NCBI GenBank assembly: GCA_000146045.2
Contig: BK006939.2
Span: 320,001-384,000, forward strand
Source of the DNA: TPA_inf: Saccharomyces
Lineage: Eukaryota
Direction: 5' to 3'
DNA: 64,000 nucleotides
Shown: positions 1-35,465 of the stretch, piece by piece
Numbering within the stretch: position 1 is the first letter of the stretch
Layout of the letters: each line of letters starts with the position of its first letter
Program-made: the position numbers and the translations under genes
Notes under the pieces: model-generated
Told to the model about the DNA's origin: nothing
What the model saw: the letters and a program-made list of their open reading frames with translations, nothing else
Databases searched by the model: none

Positions 1-1846
1 TGTAGTAGGAGCTTCGAAAAGAGTGGGTGCAATTAAATGTATCACCGTCGCCGCCACCAAGAGATTTATCTCCAATAAGCCAAACGAAGTTTTTACCAAG
101 CTAACGAATGACAATGATCCAAAGAGAGATGCCTTTTTCAAATATACGTGGGGCTCATGGCTTAAAAATGATAAGCAAGAAAAGGAAAAAAGATTCACGA
201 AGTTTTCGATTGAAGGTTTAAATCGCATTCTCAATGACATCTACATTCAATCTAATGAAATGGCTAAGGCCCCCGACGGTAAGATCTTACCACCAGTGTT
301 TAACAAGAACTTGACCGTTTCATTGGTCAATAACGTTGTACCAAAGAATATAGGTAAAATCAACCCAAATGAAAAAGTTCAAGTAACCACATTATCTAGT
401 ATTCACGAAGGTAAACATCACAGAATATACAAGGTCGACACGAATTTGAACAAGGCATTTATCTTGAGGATTCCTTATCCGCTGGAAAATGAAAACACTC
501 TATCCTACAGAATAAGAAGTGAAGTAGCAACCATGGATTTTGCTGACTTGAAGTTGGGCATCAAAGTTCCCAAGATTTTTTGTTATGGTGTCAATTCTTT
601 GAACCCTGTAAGGCAGCCTTTTGTCTTACAAGAATTTATCGAAGGAGAACTCTTGATGAAAGATTGGGATCCATTGATTGAAGACGGTTCCTCCAATCAA
701 AAAAAATATGACAATGTTATTAAACAAGTTTCTGATTTTCAGTCGAAGTTAGTGTCATTGAAATTAAATGCATTTGGATCCATATATTTTAACAATGACT
801 TAAAAGACGGAAATGAGAAGGAGTTTGTTAAGGAAGACATATACGATGGGGAAACTAATCCGGATCTACAAAACAGATGGAAAATTGGGCCATCCGTGGA
901 AAGATGTCTCTGGAGACATAAATCTCACTTGGATTTTCATAAACAAATGAAACCTTTTTTGGGACCATGGCCAAAGAAGTCTCCAATGGATATAATTAAA
1001 AATACTGGCCTATTGGAAGCTGAAAATGCTAAAACTAGAATAGCCATGAAAGAGGCAGGAAGTTCAGCTGAATTGATGTATCCTCGAACTTTGAAGGAGC
1101 AAATAACTACCTATGAAAATTTAGCTAAGATTGCCCCGGATTTATTCAACGTCAAAACAAAGGCCATTCCAAATATGCAGGAACTATTGTCACCACGTTT
1201 GTTTCATCCTGATCTAGACCCCATGAATATTATTGTTAACAAAGAAGCACAAGAAGCCTATCTATTAGATTTTGAAGGAGCATGCACAAAACCTTTCATT
1301 TTACAGAATTCGCCACAATTCATCGCCTATGATGGGCCCAAGATTTATGACTTAAAGGAGGACATAACCGATTTTGACAAATTATCTGAGGCGGAAAAGG
1401 TGCAATATCAGTTCATGTACAAGCGCACCCGTAATCAACATCAATGGGAGAAAAAATTAAATGACAATAATCCTAAATTAATTACTGCAGTTGCCCCACC
1501 TGTTAAGCTACTGAGAAGCCCATATATTGCAGCTGTCGAAAGAAAAACGGAAGAAGAGTATTTACTTATTGATGAATCACTATTGCAATTGAAGGAAGTT
1601 TGGGACATCTTTGCCCAGAATGAGTTAGTGAATCAGAAAAAGTTTCCTCTAAACTATAGTAAAGAAGATATTGAAAGACATGTTGAGGATTTGCAAAAAT
1701 TACACGAAAAGCTAATCTCTACACCATTTGCTGCCACTCAAGGGTGGATTCCTCAAGATATGTTTGATCAACTATTAAATTCCGGCAGTATTGTTAAGCA
1801 AGAGAACGGAGACTACACCGTGAAGCAACCTGAAGCTACCAAATAA
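1..1846 (+). CDS. AIM9: AIM9/FMP29, mitochondrial kinase-like protein (aminoglycoside phosphotransferase fold). The 5' end lies before the window, so the N-terminus is missing.
   Basis: ORF 23..1846 (607 aa) stays open upstream to position 2 with no stop. The protein has kinase-like motifs and sits immediately upstream of SER3, as YER080W does. Confidence 0.8.
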
Positions 1847-2125
1847 TCTATACTAAAAATGAAATATTTTTTTGTTTTCTTTACCTCATTCAACTGTATA
1901 GAACGTTATAACAAAATAATCAAGTTAAAACCCTTTTTTGTACACAATGGAATCTCTTCCATTTACTAATCAACTTAACAATGCTGGATTGGATATATTG
2001 ATAACGTTTTAAAAAGCGTTGCGTGATGTTTGGGTGCAATTGGCGGAAAAGCGGAACTTTCAAATTTACGATAGGTGGAGATACATCTCCACCTTTCTCC
2101 CCATTATCTTTGAATTTTCCTCAAA

Positions 2126-2133
2126 TATATAAA
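2126..2133 (+). promoter_or_regulatory. TATATAAA, candidate TATA box for the SRG1 ncRNA transcribed across the SER3 promoter
   Basis: Lies about 560 bp upstream of the SER3 ATG, consistent with the known SRG1-SER3 tandem arrangement. Confidence 0.4.
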
Positions 2134-2212
2134 GAGAACAACAAATCCATAGAAATGCCATTGTTTAATCCTGATTATCTACATTGTTTTAGTTTTTTAC
2201 TCACAATCGAGT

Positions 2213-2763
2213 AATGCCTTTGTTTGGCCAAGCTATGTGCAAATATCACAAATTAAAAATTTGGTTAAGCAGTTAGGCTGGACCTAATATTTTAGAAAAA
2301 CCTAATTTTTTTTGTGGACCCATTTTCGATATTTACTCACAAATGGAATTCAAGGGGAACAACTTCGGTCTCAGCACTTTAATTATTCTTCTCGTTCCCA
2401 CCTAATTTCGCAATTTATTGTCCTTGACTTCTACCACGAGAAAAAAATTAAGAAAATGCAACGCTGCCCGTGCAGGGTTTTCTGAGCGGGATGAAAAAAT
2501 CAGACAAATATCCAAGTTATGAGTAATTACTTTGTTGGAAGGAGGGAGCAGAGGATAAGGAAATTCTTAAAACTGTTATGTATATAAAGGAAGAACCATT
2601 TCTAGTTATTTCACTTTTTGATACTTGTCAACTATCTTAGTAAAAATACAGAACTCTATAAAGAACCACAGAAAAATCGACAGCAATGACAAGCATTGAC
2701 ATTAACAACTTACAAAATACCTTTCAACAAGCTATGAATATGAGCGGCTCCCCAGGCGCTGTT
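2213..2763 (+). ncRNA. SRG1: SRG1, the regulatory ncRNA whose transcription through the SER3 promoter represses SER3. Boundaries are approximate.
   Basis: The position relative to SER3 and the upstream TATA match the published SRG1 locus. No ORF lies in the interval except a 63-aa spurious one. Confidence 0.45.
2581..2588 (+). promoter_or_regulatory. TATATAAA, the SER3 core promoter TATA about 100 bp upstream of the ATG
   Basis: Sequence motif tatataaagg at 2581. Confidence 0.5.
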
Positions 2764-4095
2764 TGTACTTCACCTACGCAATCTTTCATGAATACCGTTC
2801 CACAGCGCTTGAATGCTGTAAAGCACCCAAAAATTTTGAAGCCTTTCTCAACGGGTGATATGAAGATTTTACTATTAGAAAACGTTAATCAAACTGCTAT
2901 TACAATCTTCGAAGAGCAAGGTTACCAAGTCGAATTCTATAAATCTTCATTGCCCGAGGAAGAGTTGATCGAAAAGATCAAGGACGTTCATGCTATTGGT
3001 ATCAGATCAAAGACTAGATTAACTTCAAATGTCTTACAACATGCGAAGAATCTGGTTTGTATTGGTTGTTTCTGTATCGGTACCAACCAAGTTGACTTAG
3101 ACTACGCTACCAGCAGAGGTATTGCTGTTTTCAACTCGCCTTTCTCCAACTCAAGATCAGTAGCAGAATTGGTCATCGCTGAAATCATTAGTTTAGCAAG
3201 ACAACTAGGTGATAGATCTATCGAATTACATACCGGTACATGGAATAAGGTTGCTGCTAGATGTTGGGAGGTAAGAGGAAAAACTCTTGGTATTATTGGG
3301 TACGGTCACATTGGTTCCCAATTATCAGTTCTTGCAGAAGCTATGGGTTTGCATGTGTTGTACTACGATATTGTAACTATCATGGCCTTGGGTACTGCCA
3401 GACAAGTTTCTACATTAGATGAATTGTTGAATAAATCTGATTTTGTGACACTACATGTACCAGCTACTCCTGAAACTGAAAAAATGTTATCTGCCCCACA
3501 ATTTGCTGCTATGAAGGATGGCGCTTATGTTATTAATGCTTCAAGAGGTACTGTCGTGGACATTCCATCTTTGATCCAAGCCGTGAAAGCCAACAAAATT
3601 GCAGGTGCTGCTTTGGATGTTTATCCACATGAACCAGCTAAGAACGGTGAAGGTTCATTTAACGATGAGCTAAATAGCTGGACTTCTGAATTAGTTTCAT
3701 TACCAAATATCATCTTGACACCACACATTGGTGGCTCTACCGAAGAAGCCCAAAGCTCAATCGGTATTGAAGTGGCTACCGCATTGTCCAAATACATCAA
3801 TGAAGGTAACTCTGTCGGTTCAGTCAACTTCCCAGAAGTGGCATTGAAATCATTGTCTTACGACCAAGAGAACACTGTGCGTGTGTTATACATTCACCAA
3901 AATGTACCAGGTGTTTTGAAGACCGTCAATGATATTTTATCGAACCATAACATCGAAAAGCAATTTTCCGATTCAAATGGTGAAATTGCTTATTTAATGG
4001 CTGATATCTCTTCTGTTGACCAAAGCGATATTAAAGATATTTATGAACAACTAAATCAAACCTCTGCTAAGATCTCAATTAGATTGCTATATTAA
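2686..4095 (+). CDS. SER3: D-3-phosphoglycerate dehydrogenase, 469 aa
   Basis: Full-length ORF with an NAD-binding GxGxxG motif (GIIGYGHIG) and a 2-hydroxyacid dehydrogenase catalytic domain. The neighbouring genes place it as SER3 rather than its paralogue SER33. Confidence 0.93.
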   Translation: MTSIDINNLQNTFQQAMNMSGSPGAVCTSPTQSFMNTVPQRLNAVKHPKILKPFSTGDMKILLLENVNQTAITIFEEQGYQVEFYKSSLPEEELIEKIKDVHAIGIRSKTRLTSNVLQHAKNLVCIGCFCIGTNQVDLDYATSRGIAVFNSPFSNSRSVAELVIAEIISLARQLGDRSIELHTGTWNKVAARCWEVRGKTLGIIGYGHIGSQLSVLAEAMGLHVLYYDIVTIMALGTARQVSTLDELLNKSDFVTLHVPATPETEKMLSAPQFAAMKDGAYVINASRGTVVDIPSLIQAVKANKIAGAALDVYPHEPAKNGEGSFNDELNSWTSELVSLPNIILTPHIGGSTEEAQSSIGIEVATALSKYINEGNSVGSVNFPEVALKSLSYDQENTVRVLYIHQNVPGVLKTVNDILSNHNIEKQFSDSNGEIAYLMADISSVDQSDIKDIYEQLNQTSAKISIRLLY

Positions 4096-33236: not shown

Positions 33237-34135
33237 TAGATAAATACAAACTTCGTTTTCCTTTTATTTTGTTGTTTTTTTTTTCACAAACTGTGGAAGT
33301 TCGATTAACTTTAGAAGTTTGTTTGATCAAAAATAGACTGATCCTCACACCTTTCGTTACTATTTGTTACTTTGCTGTATATCGAATAAATAAACCTGAC
33401 TAAACTCCTTCTGTTATTTAGCGCAGATCCTATATGCTGCATTTTTAGATGTATTTGAGCACTACTATCGTTAATGCCGTGGCATTGGCTATGGACCAGT
33501 TAAGTCACGGCCTTTCTTAGTTCTATCATATACGACGTTATACTTATTTACTTTCCCAGCGTTGAAATTAATGTGTCTTTTTCATAATATTTACTTTTTG
33601 GTGCGGAAATCTGTAATATTTTAAAACAAAATCTCATCCTTTTGAAAAGAAACGATGAAGAAAAAAAATAATAACATACATTGTACCTTCACTAACACTT
33701 GTAAAACAAACGCTTACATTATAATGGCACAAATGAGCAATCAGTGTCACTTCTTCCTACATAAGCATAATTCAAGTATCGGGATATAAAGCTATTATAT
33801 ACCGCTTAAGATAAGAGGTATACACCTCATTGATCAAATACGCAACAGCGTCTCCTTTCAGACCTTTGTGGAGTAATTTCTGCGGGTAGGATTGACTATT
33901 TTTCAAGATCAATGCCCCCTCACACTAAGACCTGTTTGCTTAGCATCATAAATGAGTTTTTCCATAATTAAATTTCAACCATAGATTAGAATTTCGTTGC
34001 GGGATAAAACTCCAGAACCACAACGATTATGCAGCAAATGTAACCTTGAACTAAACTAAGATTTTGTTAGAGCAGGTGGTTTCCGTTACTCAGACAAGAA
34101 CCTATAGTAGAAATATAAAAGTTTAAGTAAAACTT

Positions 34136-34850
34136 TCTTGGAATAGGAATCAGCCATCATCTATCAACTAGTGTACTGATATTCATAATACTGGTATACA
34201 ATCATATACGGTGCGGGAAGATGACATAAAAAATTGAGAAACACTCATCAAATTTAATGGAGGCCGAAATGCAGGGACTCAGATCGTGATAGAATAATAA
34301 ACGAGAACATATAAAATGGAAGAAAAAAGAATAACAACAATATGTAGATTTATCGATTCTGTTGATAATTAGAGGTAAAAAAATAGTATTAATGAAGAAA
34401 TAATTACTGATCTTCTTATACTAAATAAGAGAGGTATATAAAACACACGCCGATTGGTCATATTAATCATGACCAATATAATAGTGATTCCGGTAGTTAC
34501 TATACATTGATGTGACGACTCATATTCCTCATATATGTACCTACCATAACATGTTCAACTAATAGGTGTTTAACACAGCTTCAGTATTGTCTGAGCTTCT
34601 CGTTTAACATTCCTTCTGCAATAGGCGCAATCACACTTAAACGTATACGAGGTGTACATTAATATACGATGTAAGCATTAGATTGTTACCATAGCAACTC
34701 ATGTCACTATTAATTACTCTCGTTCCAACAGATTCTCCTTTTATGGATTCCATATCTCGAGGAGACTTCTAGTATATTCTGTATACGCAATATTATAGCG
34801 TTTACGAACAATGAATCCCAACAATTATTTTAAAATTCACCAACATCTCA
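34136..34850 (+). mobile_element. Delta-like (Ty1/Ty2) solo LTR of about 340 bp, split by a 371-bp LTR insertion
   Basis: The 5' end tcttggaataggaatcag... resembles TGTTGGAATAGAAATCAAC. The 3' end ...ggattccatatctcgaggagacttctagtatat...caccaacatctca resembles the delta terminus. The two halves are 34136..34359 and 34731..34850. Confidence 0.6.
34360..34730. mobile_element. 371-bp LTR, most likely Ty4 tau, inserted into the delta with a 5-bp target-site duplication GATTC. Orientation is uncertain.
   Basis: Termini TGTTGATAAT...CGTTCCAACA, which read TGTTGGAACGAGAG on the other strand. The exact direct repeat gattc sits at 34355..34359 and 34731..34735. The length matches tau. Confidence 0.5.
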
Positions 34851-34917
34851 ATATGTGTTTTATGAATATTTTAGGTGGGTATTGTCATACTGACGTATTC
34901 CATTTTGAGATGCAACA
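34851..34917 (-). mobile_element. 67-bp 5' fragment of a Ty3 sigma LTR. Its end lies 16 bp upstream of the tRNA-Glu start.
   Basis: On the minus strand it reads TGTTGCATCTCAAAATGGAATACGTCAGTATGACAATAC...CATAAAACACATAT, matching the sigma 5' terminus. The -16 spacing is the canonical Ty3 integration position. Confidence 0.65.
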
Positions 34918-34933
34918 CATACGTGTATTGTAA

Positions 34934-35005
34934 TCCGATATAGTGTAACGGCTATCACATCACGCTTTCACCGTGGAGACCGGGGTTCGACTCCCCGTAT
35001 CGGAG
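34934..35005 (+). tRNA. tE(UUC): tRNA-Glu (UUC), 72 nt, no intron
   Basis: TCCGATATAGTGTAACGGCTATCACATCACGCTTTCACCGTGGAGACCGGGGTTCGACTCCCCGTATCGGAG shows a cloverleaf with anticodon TTC and A/B-box promoter elements. Confidence 0.95.
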
Positions 35006-35008
35006 TAC

Positions 35009-35014
35009 TTTTTT
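35009..35014 (+). terminator. RNA polymerase III terminator, a T6 run 4 nt after the tRNA 3' end
   Basis: tactttttttg immediately downstream of the tRNA. Confidence 0.6.
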
Positions 35015-35465
35015 GACATCATACAGTGTATGTATGGGGTTAGGAGCCACCTTCCAACAAAGCATCACGCTGTCGTATCTCAATTGTCCTTCAGCAAAAG
35101 AAAAAGCAGTTGGGCTCCTGTACGCCATATATACTTTATATGCGGTTTTTACCCCGGAAATCGCGTTTATTAATGTCAATGCGCGATTTCTATTATGGGT
35201 TGAAAAAGTTGCACTTCTGTTCCTTTCCAAACGATATACGCCCCCCCCACAAGAAAACGTTTCTCTTGCATTCAATAAGGTCCATCGAAGCTGTATTTGG
35301 AACTTCCGATTTTATTAAACTTCTAGGGGCGAACTCAACCTTTCGCTTGAACAAGCTTGAATGTGTCGAAAACCTTAGCTCGATCCTTAAAAAAGTATTT
35401 GCATTATCAGTAATAAACAGAAAATTAAAACATTTACCAAAGGCAACGAGTCTTCCATATGAAAA

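Follow-up and report, generated by a model that had tools for sequence, protein, structure and literature searches.

Clusters of nested Ty LTRs close to tRNA genes were reportedly described in the yeast genome by Kim et al. in 1998. The target preferences of the elements are well characterised: the Pol III start site is located ~10-12 nt before the mature tRNA, and Ty3, guided via TFIIIB, inserts 1-4 bp upstream of it, with the tRNA-proximal end of the Ty3 target-site duplication <20 bp from the mature 5' end; Ty1, Ty2 and Ty4 insert <~1 kb upstream of Pol III genes, and Pol III subunits tether Ty1 onto nucleosomes (PMC5911963, PMC6673722). These two papers provided the position criterion used here for the Ty3 LTR (sigma), as no relevant paper was found for a '16-19 bp' rule.

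Here, we analysed a cluster of this kind in a 64-kb window, i.e. the whole stretch of DNA under study, in whose coordinates all positions are given unless stated otherwise. The cluster lies on chromosome V of S. cerevisiae S288C, in the SHC1–UBP9 interval, and is composed of an old Ty1-type delta, in which a young Ty4 LTR (tau) is nested, and the stub of a Ty3 sigma. This nested structure was already known from the SGD annotation and from a published re-annotation with population frequencies (Carr et al., 2012; PMC3511429).

Identity and boundaries of the three LTRs

The long open reading frames around the LTR cluster gave the gene order RAD51 (400 aa), SHC1 (512 aa), tRNA-Glu, UBP9 (754 aa; the protein falls in a cluster named Ubp9p, Saccharomyces cerevisiae), PRS2, UBC6 and AST2-like. 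According to ARAGORN, tRNA-Glu(UUC) is the sole tRNA gene in the window; it is syntenic across S. cerevisiae strains, one sister species and S. kudriavzevii, and is the putative Pol III-transcribed target that drew the insertions. The features upstream of it are as follows.

34136-34359, plus strand: left part of the delta (YERCdelta13), 224 bp, approximately reference bases 1-219 (BLAST, global alignment, Carr et al., 2012)
34355-34359, no strand: first copy of the tau target-site duplication, GATTC; these bases are also part of the delta (re-reading, empty alleles)
34360-34730, minus strand: complete solo Ty4 LTR (tau, YERCtau2), 371 bp (BLAST, Carr et al., 2012)
34731-34735, no strand: second copy of the tau target-site duplication, GATTC (re-reading, empty alleles)
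34736-34850, plus strand: right part of the delta, 115 bp, approximately reference bases 220-338 (BLAST, global alignment)
34851-34917, minus strand: sigma fragment (YERCsigma2), 67 bp, reference bases 1-68, TGTTG end toward the tRNA (BLAST, Carr et al., 2012)
34918-34933, no strand: spacer between the sigma end and the tRNA, 16 bp, CATACGTGTATTGTAA
34934-35005, plus strand: tRNA-Glu(UUC) gene (ARAGORN)

The assignments were obtained by running the reference LTRs of Ty1, Ty2, Ty3, Ty3p, Ty4 and Ty5 (File S1 of Carr, Bensasson & Bergman 2012, PMC3511429) by BLAST against the whole window; in that file the TY4-LTR is placed ahead of the internal sequence of Ty4. Matches were confined to 34136-34917, adjoining the tRNA gene, and the remaining ~63 kb gave zero matches to any Ty LTR reference at E <= 0.01. 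The matches to the Ty4, Ty3 and Ty1/Ty2 references were:

34730-34360, minus strand: TY4-LTR 1-371, 97.8% identity, 8 mismatches, no gaps, E = 8e-147
34917-34851, minus strand: TY3-LTR 1-68, 83.8%, E = 4e-13
34917-34851, minus strand: Ty3p LTR 1-66, 73.1%, E = 1e-6
34138-34370, plus strand: TY1-LTR 3-233, 68%, E = 5e-26
34730-34850, plus strand: TY1-LTR 215-338, 84%, E = 2e-26
34138-34359, plus strand: TY2-LTR 3-216, 70%, E = 1e-28
34729-34840, plus strand: TY2-LTR 210-322, 82%, E = 5e-20

The notion that AT-rich intergenic DNA produced the LTR resemblance and the 5-bp repeat by chance, which has nothing in its favour beyond the low complexity of the region, can be dismissed: the E-values run from 4e-13 down to 8e-147, the tau match is ungapped and full-length, and the presence and absence alleles presented below differ by exactly 376 bp.

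The tau begins with TGTTG (34360-34364), ends with CAACA (34726-34730) and lies 203 bp upstream of tRNA-Glu, inside the ~1 kb upstream zone of Ty4. Once the tau and one GATTC are removed, the two delta pieces of 224 and 115 bp add up to 339 bp, and the rejoined delta aligned globally from end to end with TY1-LTR (338 bp, 79.3% identity) and with TY2-LTR (332 bp, 77.8%). Its 5' terminus, TCTTGG, differs from TGTTGG by a one-base substitution. At the other end, the delta retains an intact 3' terminus, ...TCTCA, at 34850; the distance from there to the tRNA is 83 bp, which places the delta within ~1 kb upstream of a Pol III gene. The two parts have diverged unequally from the references, with 68-70% identity on the left and 82-84% on the right. 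No 5-bp target-site duplication belonging to the delta itself was seen, the flanks being AACTT on the left and ATATG on the right; these unmatched flanks leave the identity of the element unaffected. In the strain survey of Carr et al. (2012; PMC3511429) the delta is inactive and fixed (25/25).

With 67 of 340 bp, the sigma fragment is not a complete LTR. Read on the minus strand it starts TGTTGCATCTCAAAATGG... and its terminus is separated from the tRNA by the 16-bp spacer, the first 5 bp of which, CATAC (34918-34922), end at -12 relative to the tRNA. CATAC is presumably the surviving copy of the Ty3 target-site duplication, its partner having probably been lost together with the distal end of the sigma. 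Taken together, the positions of the sigma end (16 bp), the delta (-83) and the tau (-203) all fit the known target preferences.

Ty3p is the S. paradoxus-type Ty3, of which S. cerevisiae is known to contain nothing but degenerate solo LTRs. Such an origin could be considered for the stub, which is old and diverged: Ty3p and Ty3 have their first ~17 bases in common, and the match to the Ty3p LTR is significant by itself (E = 1e-6). Over the same bases, however, identity was 83.8% to Ty3 and 73.1% to Ty3p, and Carr et al. (2012; PMC3511429), who list the stub as inactive and fixed (20/20), class it as TY3 and not as TY3_1p. We consider derivation from Ty3p rather than from Ty3 proper improbable, and Ty3p was rejected as the source on the basis of identity (73% vs 84%).

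The elements annotated by SGD and by Carr et al. (2012) represent the same DNA; they are listed with sacCer2 coordinates, which equal the window coordinate + 320000 - 4 and thereby put the window at ~320-384 kb of chromosome V:

354134-354355 and 354727-354836, plus strand: chrV_s126+_TY1, YERCdelta13
354356-354726, minus strand: chrV_s127-_TY4, YERCtau2
354847-354913, minus strand: chrV_s128-_TY3, YERCsigma2

After correction for the 4-bp offset the boundaries agree to the base, with the exception of the 3' end of the delta, which REannotate places at 354836 (window 34840), 10 bp short of the terminus found by global alignment at 34850. The 'C' in the name YERCdelta13 stands for Crick, yet both REannotate and BLAST put this delta on the plus strand, a discrepancy of name or strand that seems to stem from the older annotation.

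Much of this arrangement had been proposed in an earlier note, which was drawn up from the raw sequence without tools. The note had read the segment as a 67-bp sigma 5' end located 16 bp upstream of the tRNA, abutting a delta-like LTR of about 339 bp, itself interrupted by a 371-bp LTR of tau length between two copies of GATTC. All of its coordinates were correct on re-reading, both GATTC copies are present, and the LTR matches at 34136-34917, with that of 34360-34730 to the Ty4 LTR among them, bear out each of the assignments. Its count of at least three successive integrations agrees with the published annotation, which contains the same three elements and designates the tau '1-nested'. The present analysis refines the note in three respects: strand (plus for the delta, minus for both the tau and the sigma), the absence of a target-site duplication around the delta, and the polymorphism of the tau.

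The Ty4 LTR as a segregating insertion

Four independent sequences were found to be without the tau, and each of them keeps a single GATTC. Two are the SGRP strains DBVPG6044 and DBVPG6040, which in the File S7 alignment of Carr et al. read ...TTTATCGAT, followed by a gap and T-CTCCTTTTATGG. The third, contig L015 (JXWR01000999.1), was one of two contigs retrieved when a metagenome collection was scanned with the 23-mer left junction; it aligns to 33237-34360 and to 34731-35212 with a 6-base overlap, i.e. exactly 371+5 bp are absent, and the other contig, L016, represents the filled allele. The fourth is an S. cerevisiae chromosome V (L019, GCA_000978255.2), in which the delta matches TY1-LTR 3-338 in one piece. 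Among the S288C-like contigs obtained by exact-protein look-ups with UBP9 and SHC1 (L001-L014) there was no empty allele: L001 carries the tau, and L002-L014 end at the tRNA or within the tau. As the empty alleles are devoid of exactly 371+5 bp and retain one GATTC, the tau is a real insertion with a target-site duplication; an identical 5-bp flank would arise by chance with a probability of ~0.0015 at the local base composition. The tau is listed by Carr et al. (2012; PMC3511429) as a '1-nested LTR' of an active clade present in 10/23 strains, and it is a segregating insertion, not fixed in the species.

The presence of both states in the population could in principle also be accounted for by an ancestral tau that was later lost precisely, along with one of the two GATTC copies. 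We regard this as very improbable. Such a loss needs recombination across a 5-bp repeat, either recurrently or with a subsequent wide spread in the species; the tau is 2.2% diverged and belongs to an active clade, as opposed to ~20% divergence and fixation of the host delta; and the empty alleles are clean, with the same single GATTC that the Ty1 and Ty2 LTR references carry at the tau junction in the global alignment.

Besides being empty with respect to the tau, DBVPG6044 has a separate Ty2-type insertion of its own. This one interrupts the old delta between 34197 and 34198, which in DBVPG6044 is ~360 bp upstream of the tRNA. The 102 readable bases of this insert are 100% identical to the 5' end of TY2-LTR on the minus strand, and the arrangement constitutes a third structural allele of the locus.

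As a side observation, CCAAT-type motifs form an almost perfect inverted pair within the tau at 34453-34477, ATTGGTCAT ATTAATC ATGACCAAT; of the eight substitutions that separate the tau from its Ty4 reference, one (reference base 263) is located in this pair.

Probable order of insertions and the missing distal sigma

The tau is younger than the delta. It is the youngest element of the cluster, as judged from its nested position within the delta, its much lower divergence (identity to reference of 97.8% for the tau, 84% for the sigma and 79% for the delta) and its polymorphism, as opposed to the fixed delta. The intact right terminus of the delta abuts the sigma at base 67/68 and looks integrase-made, so that the Ty1-type element most likely entered a pre-existing sigma. 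On the left the delta is flanked by non-sigma sequence, AACTT.

The earlier note had stated that the rest of the sigma is missing and had suggested a later deletion or recombination as the cause. The first part holds: bases 69-340 of the sigma are absent from 33237-34135 (~900 bp upstream) and from 35006-35465 (460 bp downstream), where none of the six LTR references scored higher in Smith-Waterman searches than shuffled sequence did. The second part is a reasonable explanation, and it can be made more specific. Homologous recombination between two different elements of the same orientation is expected to delete the DNA between them and to yield a solo LTR whose ends are intact but whose flanks do not match. 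Since the delta has intact ends and unmatched flanks, recombination between two elements is the most economical route, and a later event of this type is the likeliest cause of the sigma loss; the partner copies of the sigma and delta target-site duplications are gone.

From these observations we propose a history in four steps, which as a whole we hold to be highly probable. First, Ty3 would have inserted at the Pol III transcription start, where TFIIIB is described in the literature as guiding its integrase, so that 16 bp separate its LTR end from the mature tRNA. Second, a Ty1-type element would have split the sigma at base 67/68 by integrating 83 bp upstream of the tRNA; as known from the literature, its integrase may have been tethered by Pol III subunits to upstream nucleosomes. 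Third, recombination would have reduced the elements to solo LTRs with loss of sigma bases 69-340, probably by homologous recombination of the Ty1-type element with a second, upstream Ty1 or delta in the same orientation, the product being a single delta whose two flanks come from different sites. Fourth, and much later, Ty4 entered the delta on the minus strand, 203 bp upstream of the tRNA, and duplicated GATTC; it would then have collapsed to a solo tau via recombination between its two LTRs.

The reverse order of the two older elements, with the delta first, Ty3 arriving later at its usual site and a simple deletion then extending from the right end of the delta to sigma base 68, is in our judgement unlikely. 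In its favour, the sigma would occupy the canonical Ty3 position under either order and is less diverged than the delta (84% vs 79%). The deletion, however, would have had to stop exactly at the last base of the intact delta terminus (...TCTCA, 34850), a junction that is expected from an integrase and not from random deletion, and the unmatched left flank of the delta would be left unaccounted for. The delta-first order is less economical than insertion of Ty1 into the sigma.

A further possibility within the preferred history, which we put forward tentatively, is that the delta is a chimera of two Ty1-type insertions, one in the sigma at 67/68 and the other farther upstream, and that recombination between them deleted sigma 69-340 along with the intervening DNA. 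The difference in divergence between the left and right parts of the delta fits a chimera, and fits equally well a faster divergence of that end of the LTR. If the delta is indeed chimeric, S288C records at least four integrations and a deletion between elements, the Ty2-type insertion of DBVPG6044 would be a fifth, independent one, and the tRNA gene would have been targeted again and again up to the present, with no fewer than three structural alleles of the locus in the species.

Repeated use of the target is also evident in a sister species (UBP9 87% identical; L017, a contig of ENA ERZ922844), in addition to the Ty2-type insertion of DBVPG6044. The orthologous tRNA-Glu of the sister species carries an independent delta in the opposite orientation, whose TGTTGG end is ~77 bp upstream. 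The contig breaks off within this delta, and the 160 bp that it covers upstream of the tRNA contain no sigma stub. In S. kudriavzevii ZP591 (L018, GCA_947243785.1) the similarity to the window extends no further than 6 bp upstream of the tRNA, and neither a sigma stub at the orthologous position nor a match to the S. cerevisiae LTR references was found. The sigma and the delta may accordingly be specific to the S. cerevisiae lineage and younger than the species split, a suggestion that is weak because such flanks turn over fast. In the same S. kudriavzevii contig, the 3.4 kb upstream of tRNA-Glu (positions 1-3465) contain no ORF >=150 aa, no tblastn match to SHC1 and no Ns; the interval between SHC1 and the tRNA seemingly has a different organisation or species-specific repeats in this species.

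Comparison with known Ty insertions

The main value of the locus is that of a clean positive control, in which nested LTRs, their boundaries and a target-site duplication were correctly read from raw sequence without tools. It is also a textbook case of Pol III genes as safe-haven targets for Ty1-Ty4, of nesting as a guide to the time order of insertions, and of solo LTRs whose lack of a target-site duplication hints at rearrangement between elements.

Compared with active-clade Ty4 solo LTRs, the tau has the same length (371 bp), TGTTG...CAACA termini and 5-bp target-site duplication, the same location <~1 kb upstream of a tRNA gene and the same polymorphism among strains. It differs from them in that its host sequence is another LTR and not unique DNA, and from the Ty4 reference LTR by eight substitutions. 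The sigma resembles other Ty3 sigma elements at Pol III start sites in the placement of its 5' LTR terminus 16 bp from the mature tRNA, and its presumed duplication ends at -12, as in de novo Ty3 insertions; unlike other Ty3 sigma elements, 67 of 340 bp are left and the second copy of the duplication is gone. The cluster as a whole, with several Ty families upstream of one tRNA gene and the young nested in the old, is like those of Kim et al. 1998 and Carr et al. 2012; it shows no difference from them and represents a typical example.
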